Shown: positions 13,680-33,219, numbered from the stretch's first letter. The stretch: DNA of 64,000 nt from Alphaproteobacteria bacterium (GCA_964291395.2 OZ219856.1:1856001-1920000), one strand, 5' to 3'. Notes: a model not told the origin generated them from the letters alone. A program made the numbers and translations.

Positions 13680-13849
13680 GGGTCCCCGCGACCGGTCTCC
13701 CCCTGCCCCGTCGGCGCGAACGTCGGGGGTGGGGGTGTCCGAAATCACGGGTCTCGCGCGGTCACCGTCCGACGCCGCACGACACCCATCGCGCTGGCGG
13801 CGGGCGTCCAGCTTGGCCGAAAAACCTGCAGTGCACTAACATTCGAACC

Positions 13850-14071: not shown

Positions 14072-14174
14072 CTATGTGCCTTGACGAATGGTCCGCCTTC
14101 TCTCGAGGGCTGCAATTTCTTGACAATTTGCAAGTATAACTTTCAATATCACAAATTGCAAGTTACTATGCGCT

Positions 14175-15356: not shown

Positions 15357-15498
15357 TGGGCGCAATTTGTAAAGCATCGCTCCACAGGAGGCGGGTTTGC
15401 TCCGGGGTCTGTGCCGATTCATGGTCAGACGCGCCGGAAGATTGGCCGACGATCATGCGAACGCAGTCTACGTGGACCGCTTGCGCCGAGAGCTTGTG

Positions 15499-15730
15499 AT
15501 GGACGTATTCGATCTCGATGAAGCCGTCATCGATCGCTACAAAGCGTTCGCGCGCTCGTTCACCGATATCCGCTCACCGGAGTTGAGCGCCAAGGTCGAC
15601 GAACTGTATGCCACCAGGCATTTCTGGCCGGAGCCGCTGATCCAGCTGAATCTGCACTACGCCGACGGCGGCTCGATACAGGATTTCATCGACGCAGGCG
15701 ATCTGGAACCGGAATGCGTCGAGGTGTTTC
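15499..15730 (+). pseudogene. N-terminal fragment of a large DEAD/DEAH (DUF1998-type) helicase
   Basis: MDVFDLDEAVIDRYKAFARSFTDIR...FWPEPLIQLN...GG.I; similarity ends before Walker A. Confidence 0.6.
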
Positions 15731-15978
15731 GGGGCGTGCCGGATTCTGCGGCGGGACGGCATGCTGACGGTCAACGACTACCACCCGTTTCGCAGGATCT
15801 GGCGGCAATCCCCTCCATCGATGTTCAACATCGATCAACACCCATCAGTTTCGCCACGAACAATACCTCCCAATTCCTGCAAATTGTGTGGGTAGGAATG
15901 TTGGGACAAAGTGAGTTGTAAGAAAAATTTTATATGTGATTCAAAGGTGTAGTGATCAGTATCGGCATCGCATCGCTG

Positions 15979-16294
15979 CGGCTTCGGGCGCTACGCCGAT
16001 CATGGCGCCTGGCTGGCCGGCCAGGGCCACGCGATCAGCCCGGCCGCGCTCCAGCGCTACGGGAGGCGGCTTCGGGACGGCGTCGAGCGCGACCGCGCGG
16101 GAGCGCGCGAGGCCGCGGCGGCCATGACGGCGCGCATCCGCCGGAGCAACGAGATGGCGCGGGCAATCGACGAGGCCACGGACGACGACCCCCTGGCCTT
16201 GCCGGCCCGAACGTCGGGGGGTGTCGGAAGCCCCGGACCTCGCGCGGTCACCGTTCGACGCCGCACGACACCCATCGCGCCGGCGGCGGGCGTC
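15979..16294 (+). repeat. Internally deleted second copy of the DUF3486 locus
   Basis: 15979-16205 matches 13115-13341 (227 bp, 1 mismatch seen); 16208-16294 resembles 13717-13808. Confidence 0.92.
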
Positions 16295-16429
16295 ACAGAG
16301 GACAAGTCCCCGGCCTCCGACAGGGCGTTCGTGAGAATTTGCGGGAGACAGGCGGGGCCACGTTCGCCGAAATGGCCGCAGGCGGTCGCCCACGCGAGGA
16401 GACCGCCCAAAAAGGCTTCGCGAGGGGGC

Positions 16430-17469
16430 AACATCGGCACCACATGCTCCCAAGCGCGCCGCCAGGCCGGCGCGACCGCCAGGTAGCGCTCACCCCAGCC
16501 GGCCTCGAACTCATCGAGCCTGGCCGCCGCCTCGGCCGTCTCGGCGCGGTAGATCGCCCGCAGGTCGGGCATGACCTTCTTGCGGTCCTTCCAGGAGACG
16601 AAGGCCAGAGAGTTGCGGATCAGATGCACGATGCAGGTCTGAACCGCGGTCTGCGGGAACACCGCGGCGATCGCGTCGGGGAAGCCGGTCAGCCCGTCGA
16701 CCACCGCGATCAGAATGTCGCCGACGCCGCGGGTCTGCAGCTCGTTCATCACCTTGAGCCAGAACTTGGCGCCCTCGGTCTGCTCGATCCACAGCCCCAG
16801 CACCTCCTTCTCGCCCTGACAGGTGATCCCCAGCGCCAGATACACCGCCTTGTTGCGGACCAACCCCACGTCGCGGATCTTGACCCGGAGCGCATCGAAG
16901 AACACCACCGGATAGACCGCATCCAGAGGCCGGTTCTGCCACTCGCGGACCTCCTCGAGCACCGCGTCGGTCACCCGGCTGATCAGGTCCGGCGATACGT
17001 CAACCCTGTAGAGATCCTACAGGTGTCCCTGGATCTCGCGCACCGTCATGCCGCGCGCATAGAGCGATAGGATGCGGTCGTCGAAGCCGTCGAGACGGCG
17101 CTCGCCCTTCGGCACGATCGCCGGCTCGAAGCTGCCGTTGCGGTCGCGCGGAACCGCCAGCTCGACCGCGCCGTCCTCGGTCAGAACCTTCTGGCCCGAA
17201 TGGCCGTTGCGGCTGTTGCCCGTGCCGCGGCCCGCCGGGTCGCCCTTCTCGTAGCCCAGGTGATCGGTCAGCTCGGCGCCAAGCGCACGCTCCAGAAGCG
17301 CCTTCTTCAGCTGCTTGAAAAGCCCCTCATCGCCCAACAGGTCCTCCGGCGTCTCATAATCGGCCAGTAGCTCGTCCAAAAGTTCGGGTCTCAGTGTCGT
17401 CATCGCAGGTCCTCCCCTACAAGATATAGGACCCACAGCAGTCACCTACACAAGATATCGGACAGTCTC
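16430..17469 (-). mobile_element. IS256-family element, defective (in-frame TAG at 17017-17019, 3' truncated)
   Basis: LERALGAELTDHLGYEK, VPRDRNGSFEP, VFFDALRVKIR, DGLTGF, QTCIVHLIRNS; terminal IR GAGACTGTCCGATATCTTGTGT at 17469-17448; CDS starts 17403. Confidence 0.92.
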
Positions 17470-18007
17470 TGGCCAGCCCATGTTCCCTCCTATGCCTCAG
17501 ATGCTTGCGCCACCGTTCGACGCGAGATATTTCTGTTTCCTTGAGCCAAACACAGGTGACGCCCGCCCATGGGTCACAACGGGAAACAGACGATCAAGGT
17601 ACGCCTCGCAAAGGCAATCCCTGACATCTGCTTACCCCCTCTCCCTGCTCCAGGATTATCGCACCAGCTTTCCGCCCCTCAACTGGACCCACGCTCTCAC
17701 GACCGCCACGATCGTTCATGGGCACAGCCGGAGGCTTCCATTGTTTTGACTATCACACCTCAACGACAACGTGTCGGAGCATCTCGCGTGTCAAGCCGAC
17801 AGCTACCTTCACAGGGTTCGAACGAAGAGCCTTGTGATCCGCGAGTCCGTGTCGGAGGTTGGAGTGAGCGTCACCAGCATCGAGAAGGGGTAACACGCGA
17901 TACCTTGGCTTGGTCAACAAATTCTCTTCCTCTCAGCCAGAGCCCCATTTCACCTCCTTTGCCAGGACCGTACTGGAGCCAAGTAAGTACACCCGACAGC
18001 ATCCGGC

Positions 18008-19975
18008 GTGGAGGACCAAAGCATTAGTACACCACTTCCATGCTCTGATGGATTGCGGCAACTAACGATTCCCGCCACGCTCGACACTTCTACCCACGAT
18101 GTCGCCGAGGTCTTATACAATCCAGCGTTGAGTGTCTCAGTCGCTTATGATCGTGGCGTTGGTTTCTTCTCTTCTGCCTGGCTACGTCATGTGGGAAAGG
18201 GACTCACTCCATTTGCGGACCGCGGAGGACGCATGCGTTTGATTACGAGTCCGAAGCTGCGCGCACAAGATTGGGCCGCTATCAAAATGGGTGAGGATGC
18301 ACGAAATAATCCCCTTATACTGTCATCTCTTCTAGCTGAAATCGATGACTTGCGGAGCTTTTCCAGAGAGCGACCGGTTCAACTTCTTGCCTGGATGGTC
18401 GCTGATGGGCTATTAGACATTCGTATCGCCGTGCCAACATCAAAGCTTGATGGCGACTTTCACCCCAAATTGGGCATCTTTACTGATCCCGCAGGAAATT
18501 CCATAGTCTTTCATGGTTCGCAGAACGAAACGGACCAGGGTTTTCGCAATTATGAAACGCTTGATATCTATACCAGTTGGACCGACGATAGAGACGCTCA
18601 ACGGTGTGCATATCACCAAACCCTATTCGAGCGCATTTGGGATCAACGTGATGCTAACGTCCTTTGTTTCACCCTACCCTCGGCAATTCGCCGGAGGCTT
18701 GTTAGTTTCGTCGAACAGGGAAAGCGTCCTTTCTCTTCTCCGTTTGACGCACGAACGACAAGTGATAACAGATGGCAACACCAAGCAAGAGCGATTGAAG
18801 TCTTTCTTGATAAGCGTTGTGGCGTTTTGGAAATGGCTACAGGAACGGGTAAGACCCGAGTAGCTCTGGATATTCATGACCAGTTGACGGCTCGAAACAT
18901 GGTCTCAACCACGGTCGTCAACATGTACGGCACAGATCTTCTCAATCAATGGTATCGGGCTCTTATTACAAGAGTAGATCTACCGGTGTACCGGCAATAC
19001 GGAGCACACAAAGAAGCTTCAGCTTTTTTTTCCTGTCGAACACCCCGCATCCTGCTAGCGGCACGTCAGCAGCTAGCCGCAATATTACCGCACATGGACA
19101 ACGATACGGTTAAAGGCGGCCTGCTTATTTGCGACGAAGTGCATGGTCTCGGTTCGCCCGCTCTAATCCGAGATCTGAGTGGTCAGTTTCGACGTTTCCG
19201 ATTTCGTCTGGGTCTCAGTGCTACGCCGGAACGCGAGTACGATGAGATAGGAAACTCTTTTATTGAAGAGGAAATCGGCCCGGTCATTTTTGAGTTCTCG
19301 CTTGAAGATGCGATTCGAAACGGTGTTCTTTGCGAGTTTGATTATGAGCCATTGGCCTATGCGTTGTCTGACGAGGATCGGCACGCAATACGCAACGCCA
19401 TCAAGCGCCACTATGCCCGGCGTGCTCAAGGAGAGCTGAGTTCCGAAGAAGCGCTTTATCGCGAGATTGCATTTGTCCGAAAGACGACTGAACAAAAGCT
19501 ACTTCCCTTTAAGCTGTTTTTGAGTCAGAAAGGATCGGGACTATCACGTTCTCTAATCTTCGTAGAAACCGCGGAGTTTGGACTCAAGATACAACCACTA
19601 TTGATGCATTACCGTATCCCATTTCATACCTATTATCAGTCGGAAGATAGGATAAATCTTCAGCGCTTTGCAGATGGTGAACTAGATTGCCTCATCAGTT
19701 GCCATCGACTTTCTGAAGGCATTGACATTAGATCTGTGAGTAGTATCGTTTTGTTTGCCTCGTCTCGAGCACGTCTAGAAACTATACAGCGTCTCGGACG
19801 ATGTTTGCGAACCGATCCTGACAACCCGAATAAGAGAGCCCTCGTCGTTGACTTCGTGGATTTTGAATCAGAGACGGATGAACCCGACTCTTCACATCTT
19901 TCCGCTGATTTGGTTAGATACGAGTGGTTTCGGAAGTTATCAACGGTTCGTGGTTTGAATAACGCGGTACAGTGA
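18008..19975 (+). CDS. pbeA: PLD-nuclease + SF2 helicase, PbeA-like phosphorothioation-associated restriction protein
   Basis: GVGFFSS; PLD FHPKLGIFTD...GSQNET; Walker A MATGTGKT; DEVH; SATPER; LSEGIDI; QRLGRCLR; context next to dnd. Confidence 0.75.
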   Translation: MEDQSISTPLPCSDGLRQLTIPATLDTSTHDVAEVLYNPALSVSVAYDRGVGFFSSAWLRHVGKGLTPFADRGGRMRLITSPKLRAQDWAAIKMGEDARNNPLILSSLLAEIDDLRSFSRERPVQLLAWMVADGLLDIRIAVPTSKLDGDFHPKLGIFTDPAGNSIVFHGSQNETDQGFRNYETLDIYTSWTDDRDAQRCAYHQTLFERIWDQRDANVLCFTLPSAIRRRLVSFVEQGKRPFSSPFDARTTSDNRWQHQARAIEVFLDKRCGVLEMATGTGKTRVALDIHDQLTARNMVSTTVVNMYGTDLLNQWYRALITRVDLPVYRQYGAHKEASAFFSCRTPRILLAARQQLAAILPHMDNDTVKGGLLICDEVHGLGSPALIRDLSGQFRRFRFRLGLSATPEREYDEIGNSFIEEEIGPVIFEFSLEDAIRNGVLCEFDYEPLAYALSDEDRHAIRNAIKRHYARRAQGELSSEEALYREIAFVRKTTEQKLLPFKLFLSQKGSGLSRSLIFVETAEFGLKIQPLLMHYRIPFHTYYQSEDRINLQRFADGELDCLISCHRLSEGIDIRSVSSIVLFASSRARLETIQRLGRCLRTDPDNPNKRALVVDFVDFESETDEPDSSHLSADLVRYEWFRKLSTVRGLNNAVQ

Positions 19976-19979
19976 GTAC

Positions 19980-20186
19980 TTGTCTATGAATGAAAATATG
20001 TCACTTGATCAATCTATCTATGAAGCGATAGAGAACACGATATCGCCTTTCGAGAGTGAAGCGCCGAGGTTTGCGAGGAAGTTTAGAAGGCGGCTAGAAC
20101 TTAAGCTCACTGGTCGCCTGCTTCAGTCAGATCTCTTGGACCTTATTGAAGAGGTGCCGGTTGAGTTGCAGGAGCCAGGAAGTTGA
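19980..20186 (+). CDS. pbeB: Small protein between helicase and CxC ATPase, PbeB-like
   Basis: 68 aa; 4 nt after the pbeA stop, stop overlaps the ATPase start; assignment by position and size. Confidence 0.6.
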   Translation: MSMNENMSLDQSIYEAIENTISPFESEAPRFARKFRRRLELKLTGRLLQSDLLDLIEEVPVELQEPGS

Positions 20187-22114
20187 AGATTGAGTTGACA
20201 GGGTGGCGAGCTTGCAATCTGCGGGGATATCTGCGCCAGGCAGACATCAGGCTTGGACCGCCTACCGCTACTTGGACCCTTCTTCAGATGCCGAACGGCA
20301 CTGGTAAAACCACCACGATGAATTTGTTACGAGCTGCCTTTTCGGGGCGTCCGCTCAACGCGGAAACAATTAGATCTCTGAAGGCCGATGATATTGTCGG
20401 AGATGGCTACTTTGAGATGTCGCTTGTCGTTGACGACTCTCCGTGGCGAGTAGAAATGGAGTTCGACTTTCGTCGGGAACAGTGCAGGTTCTTTACTACC
20501 TCTCCTGCGGAACAGTCCGGAGGGCGTCGAACGGTGCATAGCATGCCCGGAATATTGGGTGATACTCTTCGCAGGGGCCTCACAGAGCTATTCATCTTTA
20601 ATGGCGAACTTGCGGCAGAAATAATTAAATTGGGGCAAAATAGGGCTGATGCTGCGATCCGCTCTCTTTATCAGCTTGATCGGCTCTCGGACCTGAATGA
20701 AGAAATCAAACAATTGGCGCGAAAGCGCCAAGCGAGGGCTGGTGCTACGAGCGCGGCAAGCAAACATGCCATCAGGAGATTTGCTACGGATGTTGAGGAG
20801 GCAGAAACTATATTGGAAGAACTTGAGGCCAAAGAACGTACATTGACTAAGCAAATACGTGGGTGTGATGAAAGAATCAAGAACATAGAGGAAGAAATAG
20901 AGGATAAGGAAGAGCAAAGTGACGAGTATGCAGACCAGATGCGGGAAGTTAACGCAGAAATTGGCTCGCTTGAAGACCTTGTCACACGCCTGGGTTCATC
21001 GGCTTTGCAGACTTTCCGGGTCCCACCGCTCCTTCATGCTGTTCTGAGAGAGCGTCTGGCTTCATTGGGAGGGCGATTGAGTAAACTGCGCCTGCCAAGG
21101 ACTATGTCCGAAGAATTCTTTCTACAACTCGCAGAAGCTGCTGATTGCATTTGCGATCGCCCACTGGGCCCGACGGAACAAGCTGCCATTAGGCGCAATG
21201 CAACAGATTTCCTGGGACAAGATGAGGTGGCTGTAATCAATCAAATGAAACTCGCGTTACGTGATACCAGCGACATGCCCGTACGCTTTGAGGAACTGGC
21301 GGAACAGCTGCGCACGGCTCAGCAGGACTTGCAAAGCCAAGAGCAGCGTAAGCGACGACTTCATGTACAAATGAGCGAGGCGGGAACAGAAGACTTCACG
21401 GACCTGCAGAACGAAAGGGACAAGCTCAAGCGAACGCGTGAGCGAGCAGCCGACGCGCTATATCAGCTCACTCATGTTGACGGTTCGCCGGGTAGTCTGA
21501 ATTGGAGAGCGAACATTCCGTTGTGCCGGATTGAACTGAAGGATCGGGAGCGTAAGCATGAAACGGCTACGGGGACCCATGACTTCATGCAACGTACAGC
21601 GCACCTGCGCAATCTCGTGGCTTCTGTGGAGCGCGATTCTCTGCGTCGCTTAAGGCGAAGGATACAAACGGATACTAACGCAACGTTGGAGAGGATTTTA
21701 CCAAACGAACAACTGCGCATTTCCGCAATTGATGGGAGCCTTCGCCTTGAAACACCCGAAGTAGCGGAAAAGACGGGCGTGAGCGAGGGTCAGAAGCTTG
21801 CGGTGGCATATGCGTTCCTCACCTCACTATTAGCCAGGGCACCGTACGAACTGCCCTTCGTCGTTGATTCTCCAGCTGTCTCGCTGGATGTCGAGATACG
21901 TCGAACAGTGGCTCAGTTCATCCCAGATCTTTTCGAACAAATGATTATGTTTGTTATATCGAGCGAGCGAGATGGATTCGTGGACGGCTTTTATGAGCGG
22001 CAGGATGCTCGTTTCCTGACCGTGGCCTTATCACAGGCCGGGGGCGAGACCGAACTTCGGGAGGGAATCGATGCCTTCAAAGCCTTTCAAAGCTTGGAAG
22101 ATACTAGGTTATGA
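20183..22114 (+). CDS. pbeC: SMC/Rad50-like ABC ATPase with CxC hook, PbeC-like
   Basis: Walker A MPNGTGKTT, IFNGE, coiled coils, CICDRPL, signature VSEGQK, Walker B FVVDSP. Confidence 0.72.
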   Translation: MKIELTGWRACNLRGYLRQADIRLGPPTATWTLLQMPNGTGKTTTMNLLRAAFSGRPLNAETIRSLKADDIVGDGYFEMSLVVDDSPWRVEMEFDFRREQCRFFTTSPAEQSGGRRTVHSMPGILGDTLRRGLTELFIFNGELAAEIIKLGQNRADAAIRSLYQLDRLSDLNEEIKQLARKRQARAGATSAASKHAIRRFATDVEEAETILEELEAKERTLTKQIRGCDERIKNIEEEIEDKEEQSDEYADQMREVNAEIGSLEDLVTRLGSSALQTFRVPPLLHAVLRERLASLGGRLSKLRLPRTMSEEFFLQLAEAADCICDRPLGPTEQAAIRRNATDFLGQDEVAVINQMKLALRDTSDMPVRFEELAEQLRTAQQDLQSQEQRKRRLHVQMSEAGTEDFTDLQNERDKLKRTRERAADALYQLTHVDGSPGSLNWRANIPLCRIELKDRERKHETATGTHDFMQRTAHLRNLVASVERDSLRRLRRRIQTDTNATLERILPNEQLRISAIDGSLRLETPEVAEKTGVSEGQKLAVAYAFLTSLLARAPYELPFVVDSPAVSLDVEIRRTVAQFIPDLFEQMIMFVISSERDGFVDGFYERQDARFLTVALSQAGGETELREGIDAFKAFQSLEDTRL

Positions 22115-22611
22115 GTTTCGTAGTTCACTGTGACCTACGCGAATATTTCGGGTTTCGCGGTGGTCGAGCCTTCGCGGCCACCGGTATACCAGAAGAAGGT
22201 CCTAGACAGTTTCTGCTGTTTGATGCTTTCTACGCCTGCTTACTTCTTGGTTTAGCAAGGGAGACGTTGGGAAAGGAGGAAGTATTGGAAGGTGATCCCT
22301 TTGTTGTAGGCTATCCAGAAGACTTTAGACAATCCCGTGAGTTCATCGCTGGCTTAATAGTAGAGACCGAATTGAGGAGATTGGATACAGAGTACTATAG
22401 TGAAAGAGATTTCGAGCGCGAAATTGCTAAACTTTTGGATTTGAACGAGCCCACGCGGCTGAGCAGTTCCACGGGCATAACTTGCGCCAATCTTTACGCA
22501 GCGGGTGGTTTTGAATATATGCGGGATGCGTTACAGCCCAAACCCACAAGCGTCGAGGACTTTCTATTGCGCTATCATGACTTGTGGTCAAACGACGCGC
22601 GATCAGAGTAA
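22111..22611 (+). CDS. pbeD: Small protein, PbeD-like
   Basis: ATGA overlap with the ATPase; FDAFYACLLLGL...YPEDF...NLYAAGGFEY; assignment by position. Confidence 0.6.
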   Translation: MSFVVHCDLREYFGFRGGRAFAATGIPEEGPRQFLLFDAFYACLLLGLARETLGKEEVLEGDPFVVGYPEDFRQSREFIAGLIVETELRRLDTEYYSERDFEREIAKLLDLNEPTRLSSSTGITCANLYAAGGFEYMRDALQPKPTSVEDFLLRYHDLWSNDARSE

Positions 22612-24461
22612 TGGACGTCGCGACACGATATCGGGATAGCGTTTTGTGCCTACGCACCGCGCCAACGACGTTATCGGGACTGCTCGGCGGTTTTGGAACT
22701 TTGGCAGTTCCTCCTTTTCAACGCGCTTATGCGTGGGAAGAGGCTCAAGTGTCTGCGTTTCTTTCGGATATCGAGCGCTGCCGTCTAGCACGATTAGGCG
22801 GTGACAGCACCCCACATTACTTCGGTGCGATTGTGTCTAGCTTGTCAGCCGTACCCGGTTCATCCCGCCCGCATAAGATACTTATCGACGGACAGCAGAG
22901 GCTAGCAACGTTATACATGTTGATTGTGCACCTGAGGCGTCGGTTTGAACAAGCGTCAAAGTTGGCGGCGGCTGAGAAAGACGGAGAACGTGAAAGAGTC
23001 CTGGAAGCGAGAGCCATTGGGTTGTTACATCAATTTGAGATAACTCGAGATGTTGAGTTTACTGATCCAAAAACCGTTCGAAAGTTAAGTCTGAGTAATG
23101 CCGACAATGCATTCTTTGTAGCGTTGACGACAGGAGAGAATTGTAGTCCCGATCGGGTTTCGCATGAGCGTTTGAAGACAGCTTTTGAGATGATTGGGGA
23201 TCACTTTAATAGGCTGTTGGAACGTGCAACGGACTCGGGAGGACATCTGCGATCATTGGAACCGCTTTATCAAGCCTTCATACGAGATTGGTCTGTCGTT
23301 CACTTGGCTGTCGATGATCGACGACATGCCAATCTAATTTTCCGAGTTCTAAATACGCGCGGCATTCGCATCACAGAGGGTGAACTGTTGCGCTCCCGCA
23401 CTCTAGAGGCAGCGGCGCCGCAGCTCGAAGCGGCCAAGGTATCTGCGATGTCGGACGCGTGGGACAGTATATTGATCGGTGAGCCGATCGTGGCGGATGA
23501 AGCGCTGGGCATGGTTTTTCAAGCTCGCTATGGTCGCAAGCCGTCAGTGGGTAAGATGGACTCGGACTACGAGACGGAATGTTTCCCGGCCGTCTTGGAG
23601 ACCGAAGGCCTAACCAAGACGGAAGCAGAGAATCTGCATCGAGCCGTCCTTGTTCTGCGGGAAGATATGCGTGCTCTGGCACGGTTAGGCTCCGGCTATC
23701 CGCCCTTCGAGGATGCAAACACAATTGATGCCGTCAGTCGCTCACGCTTACACGCATTGATCACAATCTTAAAGCAGAGCTACTGCTTACCTCTGTTACT
23801 CGCAGGACGATCCCTGAACCCCAACTCATTCGCAAGTCTTTGCGATGTGGTCGAACGATTTGCGTTTAGGTATTCTGTTATTGCCCGGGCTCCGATCTAT
23901 CCGGTGGATGCTATTTTTTCGGAACACGCTATCCTGCTCAGCAATGAGCCAGGCACCTTCAAGCTCGGAAAACTCGTTGAAGATCTACAAGGCCTGCTAG
24001 ACGACTTTGCGAATGATGAGCATTTTGCACAATGCCTACGATCGCTGAGGTACGGCCAAAACTTGAATCCGGCTATCCGATATCTTCTTATACTTCTCGA
24101 ACAAATGCATGCATGGTGGAAGAACAACCCACAGGGAAAGCCAGTCTGCCGCGATCCGACGAGGATACTCGATTTTGTCACAATGACAATTGAGCATGTC
24201 CAGTCTCCAAAGGAACCTGGTTTGGACCCGGACCTGATTCCCTTCATTGACACGCTGGGCAATCTTACTGTGCTGAGTAGTGGTCAGAACGACGCTCAGG
24301 GGAACAAAGCGTTTGCCGAAAAGAAACCGATTTTAGAAGATTCAAATCTCGGAATGAATAGAGAATTAGCGGAGAATGATGTTTGGTCGATTGAAACGAT
24401 ACAGGCCCGAACAGACGAACTTGTTAGAATGTGCCTAGCGGTCTTCACACTGACACGATAA
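22611..24461 (+). CDS. DUF262 + DUF1524 (HNH) protein, GmrSD/SspE-like
   Basis: VPPFQRAYAW, YFGAIV, LIDGQQRLATL, IFRVLNTRG; C-terminal TIEHVQSP...LGNLTVL...N...GNKAFAEKK; TAATG coupling to the previous gene. Confidence 0.88.
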   Translation: MDVATRYRDSVLCLRTAPTTLSGLLGGFGTLAVPPFQRAYAWEEAQVSAFLSDIERCRLARLGGDSTPHYFGAIVSSLSAVPGSSRPHKILIDGQQRLATLYMLIVHLRRRFEQASKLAAAEKDGERERVLEARAIGLLHQFEITRDVEFTDPKTVRKLSLSNADNAFFVALTTGENCSPDRVSHERLKTAFEMIGDHFNRLLERATDSGGHLRSLEPLYQAFIRDWSVVHLAVDDRRHANLIFRVLNTRGIRITEGELLRSRTLEAAAPQLEAAKVSAMSDAWDSILIGEPIVADEALGMVFQARYGRKPSVGKMDSDYETECFPAVLETEGLTKTEAENLHRAVLVLREDMRALARLGSGYPPFEDANTIDAVSRSRLHALITILKQSYCLPLLLAGRSLNPNSFASLCDVVERFAFRYSVIARAPIYPVDAIFSEHAILLSNEPGTFKLGKLVEDLQGLLDDFANDEHFAQCLRSLRYGQNLNPAIRYLLILLEQMHAWWKNNPQGKPVCRDPTRILDFVTMTIEHVQSPKEPGLDPDLIPFIDTLGNLTVLSSGQNDAQGNKAFAEKKPILEDSNLGMNRELAENDVWSIETIQARTDELVRMCLAVFTLTR

Positions 24462-24475
24462 CCGGAAAGTGCCTA

Positions 24476-25645
24476 TCAGTCGCCTAAAGCACCACTACGG
24501 AGCTGTTCCACCGCTTTGGCGAAGGCCCCAGCCACAAAGTCGACATCCGCATCCTCAGTGTATCGCCCCAACCCTAGCCGAAAGGCCTCCCGTGCCCTGG
24601 GCTGATCTCCGAACATCGCCTTAAGGACATGCGAGGTCTCAACTTTTTCAGTCGAACAGGCGCTTGACGCAGAGAATACAACCTGATTGCGCAGAAAATG
24701 CATGAGGGCGAGCGGTTCTATTCCGCTGATGGAGATCGACGTTGTATTAGGTAATCGGCATATGCGATCACCATTGATACGGGATCCCGAAATTCCTAGA
24801 AGTGTCTCCTCTAATCTATTTCGACGGAACGCAATCGCGGCAGCATCTGTGGTTCGGCGCGCCTTAACAAGAGCAAATGCCTTTCCAAGTCCAACAATTC
24901 CGTGGGTATTGAGTGTTCCTGATCGCAAACCCCTTTCCTGGCCACCACCATAGATGAGTGATTGCATATTCACTCGCGGTTTTCGTAGTCTGACGTATAA
25001 AGCTCCTACACCTTTTGGGCCGTACATCTTGTGCCCGGAAAAACTAGCGAGGTGTATATTCTCCAAGCCCACATTAATTGCGATATATGCGGTTGCTTGA
25101 GAAAAGTCTGTATGGAACAACGTGCCTGAATTTGCACAGATTGCACCAATTTCTCCAATTGGCTGTAAAGTTCCTGTCTCATTATTCGCAGCCATAACAG
25201 ACACCAGCCCCGTGTGTTCTGTCACCACTTCTCGAACATCTGAAAGGGCGACTCTGCAGTCCTTATCGACAGGCAAAATGGTAATCCTGGCTCCTTCATC
25301 TTTTAGGGAATTGACTGTCTCGAGTATAGAGGGGTGTTCGATTGCAGTCGTAACGACGTGGGGTCGTCCAGCCCGGCGCAGGGCTGGAAATGCTCCGCGG
25401 ATGGCAAGATTATTGGATTCGGTTGCACCACTCGTAAAGATTACCTCCTGCTGCCTACAGTGAATCAGAGTTGCTACCTCTCTCCGTGCTTGTTCTATTG
25501 CTGATTGTGCTTGATATCCGGCAATATGTTCGACACTGGAGGGATTGGCCGAATGTAAACGCATTGAGCAGCCGGTCGCCTCAATAACGCTCTCGTCCAC
25601 AGGCGTTGAGGCATTATGGTCGAGATAGATGGGTTGTGCCGTCAC
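24476..25645 (-). CDS. dndA: Cysteine desulfurase, DndA
   Basis: IYLDHNASTP, FTSGATESNN, SGHKMYGPKGVG, SASSACS; coupled to dndE. Confidence 0.88.
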   Translation of the reverse strand: MTAQPIYLDHNASTPVDESVIEATGCSMRLHSANPSSVEHIAGYQAQSAIEQARREVATLIHCRQQEVIFTSGATESNNLAIRGAFPALRRAGRPHVVTTAIEHPSILETVNSLKDEGARITILPVDKDCRVALSDVREVVTEHTGLVSVMAANNETGTLQPIGEIGAICANSGTLFHTDFSQATAYIAINVGLENIHLASFSGHKMYGPKGVGALYVRLRKPRVNMQSLIYGGGQERGLRSGTLNTHGIVGLGKAFALVKARRTTDAAAIAFRRNRLEETLLGISGSRINGDRICRLPNTTSISISGIEPLALMHFLRNQVVFSASSACSTEKVETSHVLKAMFGDQPRAREAFRLGLGRYTEDADVDFVAGAFAKAVEQLRSGALGD

Positions 25646-26019
25646 GTTACTTCGTTTCCCGCTAGCAAACGTGCAGCATCCGCCGGCGTTTTGATCCGGG
25701 TCGAGAGCTGACGAACACCGCGGTCAATATGACATCGTAGGCGATTTAAGAGTTCAGTTTCATCGAGGACTTCCCCATTTGGCGCTTCAACCAACCGCAA
25801 TAGGGAAGTGTAAATGGGCTGATCAACACCAAAAAGTGTGTACGCATTGAATTCCTGGCCGTCCTCAAGGGCACTTCCAACGGGACCAACGGTACCCTCG
25901 TGTAAAGAGGTTGCGATCGCCATGCGACAGATGAGATTTGGCGTGAGCCCGGCGCGCTGGCGCAACACCCTCAAGCGGTTGGTAGCTTCGGCAGAAATTC
26001 GGAATTTGCTAATGTGCAT
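25642..26019 (-). CDS. dndE: DNA sulfur modification protein DndE
   Basis: FRISAEATNRLRVLRQRAGLTPNLICRMAIATSL...EFNAYTLFG...HIDRG. Confidence 0.85.
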   Translation of the reverse strand: MHISKFRISAEATNRLRVLRQRAGLTPNLICRMAIATSLHEGTVGPVGSALEDGQEFNAYTLFGVDQPIYTSLLRLVEAPNGEVLDETELLNRLRCHIDRGVRQLSTRIKTPADAARLLAGNEVT

Positions 26020-27961
26020 GCGGGATACCACTGCCGATGGTCGTCGCGTGAGGTCGGGCTACAGTCTGGCGCGTCCCCTCAGAGACACTAAGCTCAAAGC
26101 GACGCGCGACATAGGGTAGTATAATAGCCTCCAAGTCCTCGGTAAGTTCAGAGTCGGTACAGAGCAAAATGACCTGATGACTTGCAGCAGGAACATATTG
26201 CTCAACGATTGCACGGCGATGAGAGCGATCCAGGTGGGATAGGGGCGTATCTATAATGACTGGAAGCTCTCGACCACTGCTTTTCGCCAAAGCCCAGAGC
26301 ATTGAAATTGCGAAGATTTGTCGCTCGCCGGCGGAGAGTGACTCTTTCAATACACTCTTTCCGTGATCATCAATAAGTGCAATTGCAAAGCTTTCCCGAT
26401 CTACCTCCACTCTTGATACAAAGTGCTTCTTTCTTATGAGTACGTTGAAGCACTCCGCGAAATGGCTTGAGAGGGTTTCCAATCTTTGTTCCAGCACTTG
26501 GCATTCATAATCTGCAAGAGCCCGTTGCGCTCGGGTAGCTAAATCAAGCTGACGTTCTTGGTAGTTCCGGCGTAGGAGGGCGTCGCGAGCGTTATTGTGC
26601 TCCTTTTCAAGGACTTGAACTTGGAAACGAAGTCGATCAATTTCTGATGTCAGGGTTCGTAGTGTTGTTTCCACAACTCCGAGATCATACTCTGCCGATT
26701 TCAATGCCTCCAGCGCTTCCGTGGCAGCATTGGTGTCTAGTGAAGATTGTTGTGCCTTTAGTCTATCGCGCTCCTGAAGAGCCTCGTCCAAATGATCTCC
26801 AACGCTCAATGCGCCCAACCGCAGTTGCACATCTACTTGGCTTAGACGATCTGCGATCCAAGCAGGTTCAGCGTCGAACGTGAATTCTGGTTCCTTTGTC
26901 TGTTCATTCAAGAATTGATGCATTGCCCTAAAGTGCTCCTTGGTCCAGGCAGGCTCCCTCTGTGGACCGTTGAGTCTCGCCTTTTCGAAAGCCGCCAAGA
27001 AGGACATAACGGCCCTTTGTGAGCTGCGTGACACTTCATCTGTTGTCAAGTTCCGCAGTCGTATGAGTAAGGAGGGAGCCATGCCGAGGGGCAGCACGCC
27101 ATTCGCTAGTCGCTTCAGTTCGCTGTACAGGCTCTCAATCCGCTTTTCACTAGCAGCTCTTGCCTTTAGAAGCGCGTCCCGATCGATCGCGAGGGTTCCT
27201 CCTTCTTGCTGAAAAGCCCTCTGGGCTCTTTCGATGCGCCGGGCCACTTGATCGCGTGAGCTCCGCAAGTCCGCGGCCTTGTCTTCTCTAAGCGCGAGCT
27301 CTTCCCTTTTTGCTTTCAAATCACGCTCGATCGATTCAAAATCAATATCGCCGCCGTCTTCATCAACACGGCTGACGTAAAGCGCCAAGTCGTTGCGTAG
27401 TTGTTCAACCAAATCGAGTCCCAGAACAGACCGAACTGATTCCCGGAAACCAGCCGCTTCGGTGCTATCTGCAATATCTCGTACCTTATCTCCATCAAAG
27501 AAAAAAAGTTGCGACACTCCCGTTGGAATCAGATCCTCAACATAGTGCTCCCAGTCTTCGCGTGGGATATTTTCGACTTCTTGACCGTCACAGATCAGCT
27601 GCAAGGAATCTATCACAGTTGCACCGTGCGCTGCCCAGGTTCGGGTTACCTCATAAAGTTGTTGCTTCCCTCCCTCGCGAAGCGAGAACGCCAAACTCAC
27701 CGAGGCTTGTCGCATGGGTGCAAATGAGTAAATCTTCTCCAACAAATACTTCTCATATTGCAGCCGTGATACCCTAGGTCCCAGAGCGCGTCTACCGTAA
27801 AGTACCAGTCTCACAGCTTCTAAGAAGGTTGTTTTGCCACTTCCATTGTGACCCCCAATGACAATTACATGCCTATCTCCCGCCGGTTCCGGTTGGAGTT
27901 GAAATATATTGGTGCCGCCATATAGGCCGAAATTTTCGAGCTGAAGACGTTGCAAAATCAC
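26009..27961 (-). CDS. dndD: DNA sulfur modification protein DndD (SMC-like ATPase)
   Basis: LENFGLYGG, GHNGSGKTTFLEAVRLVLYG, LFFFDGDK, LSAGERQIFA, PVIIDTPL, ASHQVILLCTDSE. Confidence 0.92.
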   Translation of the reverse strand: MILQRLQLENFGLYGGTNIFQLQPEPAGDRHVIVIGGHNGSGKTTFLEAVRLVLYGRRALGPRVSRLQYEKYLLEKIYSFAPMRQASVSLAFSLREGGKQQLYEVTRTWAAHGATVIDSLQLICDGQEVENIPREDWEHYVEDLIPTGVSQLFFFDGDKVRDIADSTEAAGFRESVRSVLGLDLVEQLRNDLALYVSRVDEDGGDIDFESIERDLKAKREELALREDKAADLRSSRDQVARRIERAQRAFQQEGGTLAIDRDALLKARAASEKRIESLYSELKRLANGVLPLGMAPSLLIRLRNLTTDEVSRSSQRAVMSFLAAFEKARLNGPQREPAWTKEHFRAMHQFLNEQTKEPEFTFDAEPAWIADRLSQVDVQLRLGALSVGDHLDEALQERDRLKAQQSSLDTNAATEALEALKSAEYDLGVVETTLRTLTSEIDRLRFQVQVLEKEHNNARDALLRRNYQERQLDLATRAQRALADYECQVLEQRLETLSSHFAECFNVLIRKKHFVSRVEVDRESFAIALIDDHGKSVLKESLSAGERQIFAISMLWALAKSSGRELPVIIDTPLSHLDRSHRRAIVEQYVPAASHQVILLCTDSELTEDLEAIILPYVARRFELSVSEGTRQTVARPHATTIGSGIPHAH

Positions 27962-29425
27962 GTCTTCTCTCCTTGGACTGGATTGACTGATCCAACGGAC
28001 GCTAAGCTCGCCGTCTCGCGCTCCTTCAAAACTTCCTCTATGCTACGCCATTCCTTTTCCATGACCGCAGCAATACGTTTGTGAACTGTCGCTCGTCGCT
28101 TTAGGCCACGTACCGAGCGTTCTACATCCAAGAGTTCGGCGAGCAACTCTAATTGATACTTCGTGCTTGTCACACACTGACCGCAACAAGACTCCGTCCT
28201 CGTGCGAAAATTGGTAGCCATCATCTTCTTCCACTGTTAATTTACGTCTAAGCACCTCTGATACAATAAGACTTACGCTATCTGACCAGTCGCCCTTCTC
28301 TGTACGCCACAGTCTCCGTATCTCTCTGAGTTCTTCGTCCTGAATGAGAATTATCTTCTCACCCGGTGGAGCATCGCTAGAGATTCTCAGCTGAGCTTCA
28401 AGAAGTTTACGCAAGAATGCCTTGCGATATTCAAGTGTGTACGGTCCAGGTATAGGATCGGAGCGACTTTCGACAAAGGTTACTTTGCCACTGCGTCGCC
28501 GAAACTCTCTCACCGTGGTCTTCCTCTTTGGATCCTGGGTCGAAGCCAATTCATCTCGGAGCTCGAGTAGCGGCTCAAGCCACTCCTCTCCATTATCAAT
28601 TAGGGCTTCCATGGCCCTGTCCCTTGAAACAACGGTGCAAACCCAGCATCCGAATCGAGAGTTCCCGCAACTTTCCGTGTGCTTGTCTACTACAAGCGGA
28701 CACTCCCCTGCTTGCGCGTTCCTATAAAGGGCAAGGAGCTGGCGGTTGTCGACGCCCCAGGGTGATGGCACTTGCAGAAGATAGGTCCATACGTCATCGA
28801 TTGTGAAGGACTCAATGGGAGTGTACACATAGGCGCCTTGAAGGGTGGAATGCCGCGACAGCGGGGAACCCGATATTCGATGAAGCGCCATCACTTGTGC
28901 ACGCGTCGCGCTTTCTGCCTTACGTACCCCTAGCACCATGACAACTTCACCATATTCTGCTACCGTATTCTTAATGAAGGCATTCGCTGGATCGATTTTT
29001 AAGCGCTCAGTGCACCAGCGGAAGCGTTTTGACGGAGCCGGATATCCCCTTCCGATCAAATTTACCCAAAAGCTATTCTCCACCTCGGGAACCACCTTCT
29101 GGGCAGAGATGGGCATGCCCTGTTTGCGGGCGGCATCATTTATTGCTATGAGTGCATTATCGATATAATTGACAATGACGGGAGTCTCGACAAGTGTGTC
29201 GGAACTCAACACATAAATTGGCTTCTTATAATCCGCCTTAGAAAGTGACGCAATCGCGTTCCAGATTAACTGCAAAGCACATGTTGAGTCTTTTCCGCCG
29301 CTGTACCCAATTACCCATGGCCGCTCGTCCGCTTGATAAACGCGTCGGATCTCCTGCTCTAAGTCGCTAACAGAACGAGTAGCCTCATAGGGCTCGTTGT
29401 TCTGGTCAAACAAATCCTGCATCAC
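27958..29425 (-). CDS. dndC: DndC sulfurtransferase; apparent single-base frameshift near 28152
   Basis: PWVIGYSGGKDS, DTLVE, FRWCTERLKI, ECPL, SCGNSRFGCWVCTVV; the DndC-like tail ELLAELLDVERS..RRA lies in another frame ending at 27958, overlapping the dndD GTG. Confidence 0.9.
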
Positions 29426-30543
29426 TCCGCTTCCTCCATGGCACGGTCGTCCGTAGTAATTCTTATCAAACTGTCTTCGGCCACCTTCCCGCGTTCATCG
29501 AGTGGCAAACCGATTGCTCGAAAGAGGACATTAGCGCCCAGAAGTACAGCCCGGCGTTGACCGTTCATCCTCACACCATTCATGACACGTCCCTCCCAAA
29601 GTCCAGAGTTTCGACGTGACCAATCGATTCGTGCAAGTGCTGTAAGGTCTTGTTTCCACTGGGTGGGACGACACTCAAGCAATTTACCACCAAGCACGCC
29701 AAATGCTTGAAGCATAACTCCATGGGCATGTACCGTGTTTTGACGAAGGTCACAGGCTGAATGCGCGCCAGCTTCAAGTCGCCTCCAATCCTCCATGACA
29801 TCGTAGAGCGCTGTCCAATATGTCCTGACGGCATTCTCTGTATCGTCCCCGAAGCGATCCGCCGCCGAACCTACCATCCACTCATGGGCCTGATTGAGGC
29901 TTGACAGAGTGTACAGTTTAGTAGTGCGGTTGGAGAGAGATACCTTTTCAAGTTCGACGAAACTTCTAAAAAATGGCACTTGCTCCAATACACGGGATGA
30001 CAATCGAGATAACGGGCTACGATGATCGAAAAGTACATTGAGAGACCCGGACGGACGAATAGCATTCTTGTTGAGGTCAGCAAACATCTGTTGGCTACGC
30101 TTCAATCCGCGATCAGCAAATACGACAACAGAAATCGTTTCGTTTTCTAGTTCAGGGCGTATCTTAAGTGCTTCCCCAATTGCAGCCATTCGGTGCTGGC
30201 CGTCATTGAGAACAATGCGCGCTTCCATCGGTATGGTTAGGGTTCCTACATTCCGCAATGCAGAATCTTCACCAGCTGAGTGAAAGTCGAGATCCCCATC
30301 GACTGACGCACAGAGAGATGACAGAATGTAGTCTTCCCAATTCGTTGCAAGATAGGCCGCAATCTGCGGCACACGGGCCTTGGATAACACCCGCTGTGCT
30401 CGCATATCGGCTGGTAAGTCTTCATTATCAAAAACGAAAATCCGCTGGACCAATTTCAGCGGAATCATCACAGTGAAATACGCCGTTCGTGCCTGCACCC
30501 CACGAATGGCTGAGAAGCTGTAGGTATTTCCATGCACGCCCAC
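29422..30543 (-). CDS. dndB: DndB DGQHR-domain regulator
   Basis: AIRGVQA, RAQRVLSKARVPQIAAY, NDGQHR, SQQMFADLN, LFDHR. Confidence 0.92.
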   Translation of the reverse strand: MGVHGNTYSFSAIRGVQARTAYFTVMIPLKLVQRIFVFDNEDLPADMRAQRVLSKARVPQIAAYLATNWEDYILSSLCASVDGDLDFHSAGEDSALRNVGTLTIPMEARIVLNDGQHRMAAIGEALKIRPELENETISVVVFADRGLKRSQQMFADLNKNAIRPSGSLNVLFDHRSPLSRLSSRVLEQVPFFRSFVELEKVSLSNRTTKLYTLSSLNQAHEWMVGSAADRFGDDTENAVRTYWTALYDVMEDWRRLEAGAHSACDLRQNTVHAHGVMLQAFGVLGGKLLECRPTQWKQDLTALARIDWSRRNSGLWEGRVMNGVRMNGQRRAVLLGANVLFRAIGLPLDERGKVAEDSLIRITTDDRAMEEAE

Positions 30544-30938
30544 ACCTCCAAGTGAGTGTGGAAGTTTATGGAAGTTGGCAGGGAAGTCAAGAGAAATCTG
30601 GGGCAGGTGTTGCTAATATCGCGTGGTGCCCGCCACGCAAGGCGACGCCTTGGGATATTGCCACTCCCAATTCAGGTCGTTCAGTTCCAACCCGCCTGGC
30701 CCGTCACTTGTCGATTCGCAGCAGAGTTGACATCTGAAAGCGCCTCCCGACCTTATGGACACCATCCGTATGTCCAGCATGTGACCTGTGAAACAGCTTG
30801 CAATCCCACCCAGTGGGCATACATTGCCGTTCAAGAGAACCCATCGGACTGCCGCCCAGAAAGGGAGATACGGGGTCCGATTACTACGACCCCAGGGACG
30901 CCTCGTGCGTCCCTGTATTTTTTGCGGTGTGACGCGAT

Positions 30939-31267
30939 ATGCCCGCTGACGCCCCGGTTCAAGCCCCCGTCATCGAGTGCGTGTGTTCGTCGACTTCTGG
31001 AACTACAAGCTTTCCATGCGGGACGCCGACGCGGCGTTCCGCACGGACCGGGCGAAGCTCGGGCCGGTGCTCGCGCTCGCCGCGGCTGCGGTCGTCGATG
31101 TCGCTACCCCCTCGGACCTCGACCTGCCCGGATACCGGCTTCACCCGCTGAAGGGGTATTGGAGCATCTCGATATCCGGCAACCGGCGGTTGATCTTCCG
31201 TTTCGAGGAGGGCGATGCCTACGACGCCCACCCGGTCGACCACCACCAGCGAGAGACCGCGCCATGA
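30939..31267 (+). pseudogene. Chimeric remnant: NYN-domain N-terminus fused to HigB toxin C-terminus
   Basis: RVFVDFWNY... (NYN-like) joined at VVD/DVA to [39 protein letters not shown] (HigB-like). Confidence 0.65.
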
Positions 31268-31539
31268 CGATGAGCAATCCCCCGCATCCCGGACGAAGCA
31301 TCCGGGAGAACTGCCTCGATCCGCTCGACCTGAGCGTCTCCGAGGCGGCAAGGGTGCTGGGCGTCGCCCGTCACACCCTCTCGCGGGTGCTGAACGGCCA
31401 CGCGGCCATCTCCCCGGAGATGGCCATTCGGCTGGAGAAGGCCGGCTGGTCCAGTGCGGAGTTCTGGCTGCGCCGCCCTGACGGACGAAGAGGCCGCGCG
31501 CATCGAAGGCATTTACCGGGACGTGTTCGCCAACGATGA
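31264..31539 (+). pseudogene. higA: HigA antitoxin, C-terminally truncated
   Basis: [55 protein letters not shown]...EFWLR, then unrelated tail. Confidence 0.8.
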
Positions 31540-31710
31540 ACGTGCGTAACCGAACCAGGCCCTGTCATAGCGTCCAAGAAGGCCCGCTTCACGGCATGGC
31601 ATGGCGGAAACAGCCCGTGAGCGGGCTTGCCCCTCCGGGCGTCGCATAGGGGTAAGAGCCGTGCCGGGGCTCCACCGGGCCACGTCGCCGGCGCCCACGC
31701 CCGGGCATTG

Positions 31711-33000
31711 CTACCGCCCGAACGGCACCGCCTCGACGTCCTCGATCCGTTCGTCCCCGGTGAAGCGCCAGACGCCGACGTGGCCGCGGCGCAGGTCGCC
31801 GTTCCCGTCCCAGTCCATGCCGCCCGAGGCGCCTTCGTAGTCGATCTCCCCGCCCCCGGCGAGAATGCGCAGCGCGTCGGCGACGCCCCGCGGGCCGGCG
31901 GTCACCACCGTGCCCGGCCCGCCGCCGACCGCCCGCAGCCGGTCGCGGATGGCGGCGCCGTCCACCCGGCCGGCGGCCTGCGCGGCGAGCGCCAGGACGA
32001 CCGTGGCGTCGTAGGCCTCCTTGACGTATGCGAGCACCGGCAGCGCGCCGTGCTGGTCGACCCAGGCCGCCTCCCACGCGGCGGACGACACGCTCTCGGG
32101 CGCGGTCGCGGGCCCGGTGCCGTACATGCCGCCGAGGCGGGCGCCGCCGATGGACCGGACCAGGCTCAGCCGCTTGGCGGCGTCGCCGAAGACGAAGTCG
32201 TCGTAAAGGCCGTCGTCGATCGCCTCGCGGACGATGGCGAGCGCCGCCGACTCGAAGGCGATCACCACCAGGGCCTGGGCGCCGCCGCCCGCGGACTCGC
32301 GCAGCGCCGTCAGGAAGCCGGTCTCGGCGCGGTCCACCGGGACGGCCTCGAGGGCGCCGTCCCAGGCCGCCGCGAAGGCGCCGGCGAGGCCCCGCCCCCA
32401 GGGGTCGTCGACATAGAGCAGGCCGACATTGTCGAAGCCCCGCTCGCGCGCGAGACGGGCGAGGACGGGTCCCTGGGAGACGTCGGAAAGGGCGGTCCGA
32501 AACAGGAAATCGTCGTCGGCGGCCCCGGTCAGCTCCGGCGACGTGGCCGAGAAGCTGACGGTGGGGACGGCGGCCGGACCGGTCACCCGCTCGGCCACCG
32601 GCAGCGCGCTGGCGCTGGCGTTGGGGCCGACGACGGCATGGACGCCCTCGACCTCGACGAGGCGCCGCGCCGCCGCGACCGCCTTCTCCGGGTCCGCCGT
32701 GGCGTCGGCGACCGCGACCGCCACGGGCAGGCCGAACACGCCGCCGCCGCCGTTGACGTGCGCGATCGCGAGCTCGAACGCCCGCCGCCTGTCCCTCGGG
32801 ACCTCGGCCGAGCCGCTGCTGAAATCCATCAGCAATCCGATCTTGAGCGCCGTGGCCTCGTCCGCCCGCGCCGCCGACGGCTCCGCCGCCGCTCCAACCA
32901 GCGAGATGCCGGCCGCACCGAGCAGCATCCCGACCGCACGCGCCCGGAAAGACGCCCGGTGGCAGAAATTGCGGATCATCGTGAATTTCCTCCACTCCAA
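31711..33000 (-). CDS. ABC transporter substrate-binding protein, branched-chain amino acid type
   Basis: Signal peptide; KIGLLMDFS, VNGGGGVFG, SATSPEL, FLFRTALSD, YEGASG. Confidence 0.88.
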   Translation of the reverse strand: MEWRKFTMIRNFCHRASFRARAVGMLLGAAGISLVGAAAEPSAARADEATALKIGLLMDFSSGSAEVPRDRRRAFELAIAHVNGGGGVFGLPVAVAVADATADPEKAVAAARRLVEVEGVHAVVGPNASASALPVAERVTGPAAVPTVSFSATSPELTGAADDDFLFRTALSDVSQGPVLARLARERGFDNVGLLYVDDPWGRGLAGAFAAAWDGALEAVPVDRAETGFLTALRESAGGGAQALVVIAFESAALAIVREAIDDGLYDDFVFGDAAKRLSLVRSIGGARLGGMYGTGPATAPESVSSAAWEAAWVDQHGALPVLAYVKEAYDATVVLALAAQAAGRVDGAAIRDRLRAVGGGPGTVVTAGPRGVADALRILAGGGEIDYEGASGGMDWDGNGDLRRGHVGVWRFTGDERIEDVEAVPFGR

Positions 33001-33219
33001 CGTGAAGCCGCGGAAACCGGCCCGCTCCCGGCCGACCGCACCGCGTCACCAGCGACAGCGACCATGCGATGCACGACGCCGTCCTGTCCAGCGCCCGGGA
33101 GAGGGTCCGGCCCGTCACCGGGGAAACCCGCCGAGGTTCGCGTCCCGCCAGCCGCGCGGCGTCCGGGCGCCGACGAGGTTCCGCGATTCGCCGCGGCCGC
33201 GACGGAACGGCCCGAGGCT

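Follow-up and report, generated by a model that had tools for sequence, protein, structure and literature searches.

A probable phosphorothioation defence island pairing dndBCDEA with a pbeABCD-dndI operon in an alphaproteobacterial genome

Results

Organization of the locus

The DNA analysed here, called the window throughout, is a stretch of 64,000 nucleotides (nt) from an Alphaproteobacteria bacterium (GCA_964291395.2, OZ219856.1:1856001-1920000). It carries a low-GC, foreign-looking block (17446..30800, unstranded, delimited by GC content, GC content at third codon positions (GC3) and edge features) that holds ten genes related to DNA phosphorothioation (PT) and to effectors associated with it. 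Five plus-strand effector open reading frames (ORFs), pbeA, pbeB, pbeC, pbeD and a dndI-like gene, face five minus-strand dnd ORFs, and the two stop codons at the convergent junction (24461 and 24476) leave a gap of 14 bp. A first-pass annotation of the same DNA had placed ten ORFs here, with dndB-C-D-E-A facing a five-gene operon across a 14-bp gap in a single low-GC block, and both the ORF map and the GC profile agree with that description.

The modification genes

The minus-strand module consists of dndB (29422-30543), dndC (28043-29425), dndD (26009-27961), dndE (25642-26031) and dndA (24476-25645), and each of the five products was matched by its PADLOC profile, as had been anticipated. 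DndB, a predicted DGQHR/ParB-superfamily protein, gives E 1.9e-132 in PADLOC, E 1.3e-114 to Pfam DndB and 404.1 bits to TIGR03233 (cut-off 328), in line with the earlier proposal that a DndB regulator is present. DndC, a PAPS-reductase-like sulfurtransferase (PADLOC E 1.5e-188; TIGR03183 551.5 bits, cut-off 290.4), DndD, an ABC ATPase (PADLOC E 1.1e-180; TIGR03185 470 bits, cut-off 245.85), and DndE (PADLOC E 1e-43; Pfam DndE; TIGR03184 87.8 bits, cut-off 71.85) likewise exceed the curated equivalog cut-offs of NCBIfam. The cysteine desulfurase DndA strongly matches its PADLOC profile (E 2.6e-133) and Pfam Aminotran_5 (E 4.3e-70), yet it falls below the equivalog cut-off of TIGR03235 (395.6 against 480 bits), and is therefore better described as a desulfurase in the DndA position than as a strict equivalog. 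Overlapping stops and starts had been claimed for the whole operon; dndB/dndC and dndE/dndA indeed overlap by 4 nt each and dndD/dndE overlap by ORF call, but dndC and dndD do not overlap, being separated by 81 nt (28043 against 27961).

The absence of dndFGH, also proposed in the first-pass annotation, holds both for the island and for the genome as a whole (G000; 3 contigs, 98.1% complete, rated 9% contaminated). The DptF, DptG and DptH profiles (TIGR03238, TIGR03236 and TIGR03237) gave no match in this genome, and all three scored above cut-off on the E. coli B7A chromosome, which served as the positive control. Elsewhere in the genome, a lone DndC fragment lies at G000:C1:854456-854638 (L074:9457-9633, minus strand), with 59 aligned amino acids (aa), 56% of them identical to the island DndC, and 92.8 bits to TIGR03183. 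No other dnd or pbe gene occurs within ~9 kb of this fragment, which appears to be left over from an older dnd cluster.

The pbeABCD cassette

Motifs were compared in alignments of 14 PbeA, 14 PbeC and 9 DndI sequences, and all catalytic signatures are intact in the PbeA, PbeC and DndI-like proteins of the window. PbeA (18008..19975, plus strand, 655 aa) combines an HKD (PLD-type) nuclease domain with a superfamily 2 (SF2) helicase; it matches PADLOC PbeA (PDLC02703) over residues 17-625 with E 4.7e-193 and contains the Pfam domains ResIII, DEAD and Helicase_C. Against the NCBIfam model TIGR04095, named 'DNA phosphorothioation system restriction enzyme', it reaches 147.9 bits, under the cut-off of 600. 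Its motifs H152-P-K154...GSQN170-173, ATGTGKT277-283 and DEVH376-379 align with those of 13 relatives. The HKD motif itself (residues 152-154, window positions 18461-18469) reads HPK, and all 13 aligned relatives have HDK or HEK.

PbeC (20183..22114, plus strand, 643 aa) is a CxC ABC ATPase with a Pfam AAA_23 domain, and scores better against PADLOC PbeC (E 2.8e-25) than against DndD (5.5e-19). The Walker A motif NGTGKTT (38-44), the C322-I-C324 motif, the signature SEGQ, the Walker-B-like VVDSPAVSLD and the D-loop are kept in 14 of the 14 aligned sequences. The residue that follows the CxC is Asp here; Gly occupies this position in 12 of the 14. The matches to PbeA and PbeC, together with the CxC motif, bear out the earlier description of the cassette as PbeABCD-like. 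PADLOC matches had been expected for the cassette as a whole, and they were obtained for these two proteins but not for PbeB or PbeD.

The remaining two genes of the cassette are small. That of PbeB (68 aa, 19980..20186, plus strand) is assigned by position and size only: PADLOC and NCBIfam returned nothing relevant even at E <= 10, and there was no Pfam match. In all 14 loci examined, nonetheless, pbeA and pbeC are separated by an ORF of 56-86 aa, with only loose similarity of sequence. PbeD (166 aa, 22111..22611, plus strand) was equally silent in PADLOC and NCBIfam at E <= 10 and in Pfam. Its 25 homologues are all annotated as 'hypothetical', the named ones coming from Celeribacter and Shimia, and a profile built from these 25 gave only chance-level matches among PDB sequences. 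An AlphaFold2 (AF2) model of PbeD (pLDDT 82.9) was structurally re-aligned with VIA, which placed E. coli DndE (4lrv_K) at the top, with Z 6.4, a root-mean-square deviation of 2.9 A and 91 of 104 residues aligned; the next unrelated entry reached Z 2.4. PbeD may thus be regarded, with moderate support from the model, as a DndE cognate by fold, the support being moderate because sequence profiles are silent and the Foldseek search is not significant by itself.

A dndI-like fifth gene coupled to pbeD

The last gene of the plus-strand operon (22611..24461) is dndI-like, encodes a DUF262 NTPase and a DUF1524 HNH nickase (Pfam GmrSD_N and GmrSD_C), and is called 'Orf5' by PADLOC (PDLC02695, E 2.2e-163). 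Its longest ORF (22584-24461, 625 aa) begins with a GTG at 22584; judging from the codon arrangement, the start is most likely the ATG at 22611 instead, which shares one base with the stop codon of pbeD (TAATG). The protein matches Salmonella DndI (PDB 9JFL) over nearly its full length (E 6.1e-55, residues 40-622 against 20-594). Moreover, DGQQR is kept at residues 102-106, and H538 and N569 align with the HNH motif, N569 being the equivalent of N541 of DndI; the [F/Y]QR, DGQQR and EH...N...N motifs are intact in the alignment of nine sequences. From the 9JFL match, the conserved DGQQR and the HNH Asn, the fifth protein is, as judged by sequence, a full-length DndI homologue. Its N-terminal 100 residues also match SspE weakly (6jiv, E 1.7e-06; PADLOC SspE, E 4e-16). 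An extra effector nuclease had been predicted at this place; the nuclease is there, but it is not anonymous, since it is the homologue of an already characterised PT-sensing nickase.

At all four junctions of the plus-strand operon, the stop of one gene overlaps the start of the next or is at most 4 nt away from it, by way of ATGA/TTGA-type overlaps or a 4-nt spacer: the stop codon of pbeB overlaps the start of pbeC by 4 nt, and the stop codon of pbeC and the start of pbeD share an ATGA. The five effector genes are translationally coupled and probably lie on one transcript. Upstream of pbeA, no conserved DNA or ORF was found across 8 loci.

Comparison with known systems

The closest described counterpart of the cassette is DndCDEA-PbeABCD of Haloterrigena jeotgali A29 (Xiong et al.), in which the order of genes is the same (HKD/SF2-helicase, small protein, CxC ATPase, DndE-like protein), the sizes are similar (66 aa for the small protein and 152 aa for the DndE-like protein, against 68 and 166 aa here), the cassette adjoins a dnd operon that includes dndA, and dndFGH is missing. 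The window differs from it in several respects: the host is bacterial, dndB is present, and the cassette converges on the dnd genes, whereas it follows them in Haloterrigena. Moreover, pbeD is followed by a fifth, translationally coupled gene of dndI-like type; PbeB and PbeD have diverged beyond the reach of the PADLOC profiles, and PbeC matches them weakly.

Cassettes of this kind have been reported in bacteria before. Xiong et al. 2019 counted 553 PbeAC in all, of which 235 are bacterial and adjoin dndCD (PMC6459918), and a 2024 reappraisal in Nucleic Acids Research described tandem DndD- and CxC-centred systems in 936 bacterial taxa (PMC10853773). The latter assigns an HKD domain and an SF2 helicase to PbeA, treats PbeB as small and fast-evolving, and takes PbeC for an ABC ATPase with a CxC motif and PbeD for a cognate of DndE; it makes no mention of DndI or DUF262. 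In view of these two censuses, the earlier reading of the locus as a Pbe-type system in a bacterium is supported, but its novelty was overstated. RefSeq plasmid records likewise use the names 'CxC ATPase DNA modification system associated small protein', 'DNA phosphorothioation system restriction enzyme' and 'DNA phosphorothioation-associated protein 4'.

The fifth gene has its own history. ORF5 of the Salmonella Cerro 87 dnd cluster (PMC2978375) was renamed dndI (PMC4198939), and its product was reported in 2024 to be a PT-sensing effector by itself, with a DUF262 NTPase carrying DGQQR and a DUF1524 HNH nickase (PMC11662687). According to the same work, PT-DNA stimulates the ATPase of DndI and leads to its release from self DNA, DndI alone together with dndBCDE protects E. 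coli, and 61 of 568 dndBCD genomes have dndI without dndFGH. The IscS-DndBCDE-DndI system of Salmonella enterica Cerro 87 (Tang et al. 2024, PMC11662687) resembles the present one in its DUF262-DUF1524 architecture, in full-length similarity and in the link to dndBCDE. There, dndI is reported to be co-transcribed with dndFGH, whereas here it is the last gene of the pbeABCD operon. The SspE effector of SspABCD-SspE is also a DUF262-DUF1524 protein; the modification genes of the window are, in contrast, Dnd-type (DndD/DndE) and not SspBC, and the effector is far closer to DndI.

A related layout occurs on plasmid pRspNXC14a of Rhizobium sp. NXC14 (NZ_CP021031.1; L041), where pbeA-B-C-D converges on a cysteine desulfurase gene and dndE-D-C-B, and where RefSeq labels the small gene 'CxC ATPase DNA modification system associated small protein'. 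Unlike the window, this locus has no dndI after pbeD; its proteins are 30-62% identical, and DndB-like, methyltransferase, RelA/SpoT and sigma-like HTH genes lie nearby. In all essentials, the locus thus corresponds to known systems, and the pbeABCD-dndI operon is its one modest new point. No description of such an operon was found in the literature searched, the supplementary tables of PMC6459918, PMC10853773 and PMC11662687, which may list such neighbourhoods, being outside the search. Among the papers searched, a single one names both dndI and pbeA, and it refers to Pbe once, in its introduction.

Recurrence of the pbeABCD-dndI operon

The frequencies of pbe cassettes given here rest on samples. 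Among 401 genomes sampled at the phylum level, seven, including this one, encode a full-length PbeA of this type (E < 1e-50), and one of the six others (G084, L035) shows the identical ten-gene layout. A plasmid collection yielded 24 records with a PbeA match, five of which were inspected; Methylobacterium bullatum NZ_LR743510.1 (L039) again has the identical ten-gene layout. The proteins of these two loci share 36-63% amino-acid identity with those of the window. A single-protein PbeA search of genome contigs returned two weak, partial relatives only. The ten-gene layout is found as well in the metagenome contigs L044, L050 and L052, and for the five-gene pbeABCD-dndI operon the tally is three genomes or plasmids and ten contigs from metagenomes.

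With a PbeD alignment as query, a metagenome scan returned 23 loci, of which L049 and L050 duplicate each other and L064 and L065 appear to do so. dndI follows pbeD directly in all ten loci with the closest PbeD (42-63% identity; the L049/L050 pair included), and is absent from all eight more distant loci with at least 1 kb downstream; the remaining five are too short. In the window and six relatives, the start of dndI abuts or overlaps the stop of pbeD.

This recurrence bears on a further possibility, namely that DndI is an integral fifth subunit of the Pbe-type machine, which would sense PT and nick DNA while being loaded or moved by PbeCD and PbeA. The position directly after pbeD in the ten closest metagenome loci, and also in L035 and L039, is in its favour, as is the abutting of the two genes. 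Moreover, the five genes stay together while the dnd operon relocates around them, being convergent in L044, L050 and L052 and upstream on the same strand in L046; in L051, dndC comes after dndI. In a maximum-likelihood tree of PbeA (20 rows), DndI-linked cassettes are clustered, none of 500 label shuffles being as clustered. They do not, however, form one clade: the DndI link must have been gained or lost at least twice, and L057, which is without DndI, groups with L035 and L039 (support 98/95). Salmonella DndI, moreover, is reported to function without any Pbe protein (PMC11662687), and the slot after pbeD is empty of any such gene in L041 and filled by others in L075. Taken together, we consider an integral fifth subunit unlikely.

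The locus L075 (G402:C1:910000-929900) belongs to a species of the same genus and is a distinct Pbe and Dnd island with pbeA-C-D, its PbeA being 42% identical to that of the window. After pbeD come genes for a 280-aa protein of no assigned kind, a DndB-like protein of 586 aa and a protein with a RelA/SpoT domain, followed by dndA, which is convergent, and dndB-C-D; the slot after pbeD thus holds varied accessory genes. Two of the five other species of this genus carry dndC: it is intact in G402, with that species' own pbe cassette, and broken in G405, where a TAG stop interrupts it beside an adjoining DndD-like gene in a decaying dnd cluster (L076, G405:C5:198518-199766). Such islands therefore do live in this genus. 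Further afield, L037 (G099:C1:123500-142900, 35% GC) has dndA and dndBCDE, followed beyond a 7.4-kb stretch by genes for a DndD-like ATPase and for a distantly related PbeA (28% identity); the DptH profile had no match in G099.

The association of the cassette with dnd genes bears, in turn, on whether PbeABCD depends on PT at all. It could be that only the DndI-like nickase reads PT and that PbeABCD is a PT-independent passenger, perhaps an abortive-infection or suicide nuclease that PbeB restrains until a phage triggers its release. Consistent with this, 320 of 553 pbeAC are reported without dnd (PMC6459918), CxC cassettes without dnd are described in numerous taxa in PMC10853773, which proposes a PT-independent suicide model, and L033, L034 and L040 carry pbeA-B-C-D with no dnd gene in the range fetched; DndI alone with dndBCDE, as noted above, is sufficient to protect E. 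coli. Against it, the effect of Haloterrigena Pbe was reported to be lost when the virus was PT-modified (PMC6459918). Dnd genes adjoin the PbeD relatives in 12 of the 23 metagenome loci, most of the other 11 being too short to tell, and within the subgroup of the window they are adjacent in nearly every contig that is long enough; the coupling of pbeABCD to dndI points the same way. We therefore hold a PT-independent cassette to be improbable here.

One of the cassettes that stand without dnd, L040 (B. thuringiensis plasmid NZ_CP016589.1), is a solitary pbeABCD with no dnd gene within 13 kb, and a divergent gene for a 331-aa 'DUF262 domain-containing protein' lies directly upstream of its pbeA. 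It is another case of a ParB-superfamily gene paired with a Pbe cassette.

Composition and edges of the island

The island measures ~13 kb at ~50% GC in a genome of 68-70% GC. In the GC profile of the window, GC content is 0.48-0.53 across 18-31 kb and 0.60-0.75 in the flanks, and GC3 ranges over 0.46-0.53 among the island genes and over 0.77-0.97 among those called in the flanks. Its left edge abuts a broken IS256/Mutator transposase gene on the minus strand (16057-16974 and 17017-17445, Pfam Transposase_mut on both fragments). Direct repeats of this element pair 13115-13354 with 15979-16218 (240 nt, 97%) and 13731-13808 with 16217-16294 (78 nt, 90%). The stretch 13029-17445 to the left of the island is a mobile-element graveyard, in which a Mu Gp27-like gene (13029-13679) and an AAA_14/DUF4143 ATPase gene (14175-15356) were also found. 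The sole tRNA found, tRNA-Arg(CCT), lies at 12122-12190, 5 kb left of the island.

The right edge is located upstream of a HigB-like/HigA toxin-antitoxin pair of host-like GC (30977-31539), in which HigB-like has a weak Pfam match (E 8.4e-05) and HigA matches TIGR02607 (E 1.7e-22). A strong terminator-like hairpin followed by a T-run stands at this edge (30893-30915). Scans of promoters and terminators did not rise above shuffled expectation: they returned 12 promoter-like sites (10.2 expected) and 8 terminator-like ones (14.9 expected). The island edges were searched for flanking direct repeats, an integrase and a tRNA, and none was found; likewise, a search for the flanks in 20 relatives revealed no syntenic empty site. 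A candidate empty site, joining 16475 to 33882, was discounted, as it rested on one contig with a side of 22 letters.

Read support

The interior of the island is found in independently assembled DNA: a public contig of 7,715 nt spans 17362-25076, bridging pbeA through the dndI/dndA convergent junction, and further public contigs tile 25058-30602. Only one public run (X1) holds the island, and in it the contig depth steps up between 30602 and about 30800. In the same run, a relative's contig of depth 17.7 covers about 30807-31105. Runs X2 and X3 contain next to no island, and the flanks are hardly covered in them either, so that they are uninformative on its presence or absence. The island may sit in a minority strain of a mixed sample.

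Discussion

Taken as a whole, the locus is likely to be a horizontally acquired, PT-based defence island of the restriction-modification kind, with one modification module and two effector modules, all of described kinds. As to how it might work, DndA would draw sulfur from cysteine, DndC, DndD and DndE would place PT at a short consensus in the host DNA, and DndB would damp dnd transcription. The DndI-like protein would bind DNA and, where host PT stimulates its DUF262 NTPase, be released from self DNA; on unmarked phage DNA it would remain bound, and its HNH domain would nick. In parallel, the CxC ATPase PbeC and the DndE-like PbeD may scan DNA, PbeA may translocate along it and possibly cut through its HKD domain, and PbeB may regulate the system or sense a trigger, the four proteins jointly blocking phage DNA replication in a PT-dependent manner.

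Several observations weigh against this interpretation. PbeB and PbeD lack a curated profile, and are therefore assigned through position, size and a middling fold match; for PbeD, a Foldseek search of the model against the PDB gave nothing at E <= 0.001, with DndE 4lrv_K at rank 23. The match of PbeC to the PADLOC PbeC models is weak (87 bits). The PT-sensing Tyr25 of Salmonella DndI aligns with Phe45 here, which is a difference from the Cerro 87 protein; in the nine aligned sequences, this position is Phe in six and Tyr in three. It is argued in PMC10853773 that dnd is often missing where CxC/Pbe cassettes are found, and that these cassettes may not act as PT-dependent effectors at all; among the public runs no RNA run is listed that holds the effector operon. 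Finally, in run X1 the contig depth is 2.3-7.4 over the island (window positions 17820-30435) against 21-280 in the flanks. A depth so far below that of the flanks is what makes a minority strain possible, and the join at the IS256 element is to be regarded as provisional.

These last points raise the question of whether the island is a working part of this chromosome, or else an assembly error at the IS256 repeat or silent cargo. The step in GC3 (from about 0.9 in the flanks down to about 0.5 within the island), a left edge formed by a multi-copy insertion sequence (IS), a depth of roughly 3 against 21-280 in the sole run that holds the island, the 9% contamination rating of the genome, and the lack of any relative with syntenic flanks, hence of any empty site, all fit such an explanation. 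The depth contrast is inflated, however, as the flank depth sums related organisms at >= 90% likeness. Moreover, none of the ten genes is disrupted and their motifs are conserved, other species of the genus have dnd or pbe clusters of their own (intact in G402, broken in G405), and a second DndC fragment exists elsewhere in the genome. We consider a misjoin or silent cargo very unlikely, and retain the reading as a PT-based defence island with two effector modules.

This remains, for the most part, an ordinary and already classifiable defence island, the practical value of which lies in the annotation of pbeB and pbeD, which current profiles miss. The pbeABCD-dndI operon goes somewhat further. 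The mechanism of PbeABCD is disputed, being described as a block of replication without cleavage (PMC6459918) and as an HKD-nuclease restriction or suicide system (PMC10853773), and here a natural operon ties pbeABCD to DndI, the one PT effector with a solved sensing mechanism. Since this operon recurs while the position of dnd shifts, it provides a convenient construct for asking whether the two effectors are independent, additive or parts of one complex. A tentative and rather doubtful extension would be that DndI was recruited as a permanent fifth gene into a subgroup of Pbe (CxC-ATPase) systems. The resulting effector would have five components, with the PT-sensing nickase physically coupled to the PbeC/PbeD scanner and the PbeA translocase. 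If true, this could reconcile the reported lack of cleavage by the four-gene PbeABCD with a model based on nuclease action, and would reveal the way in which PT sensing is connected to a Pbe machine.

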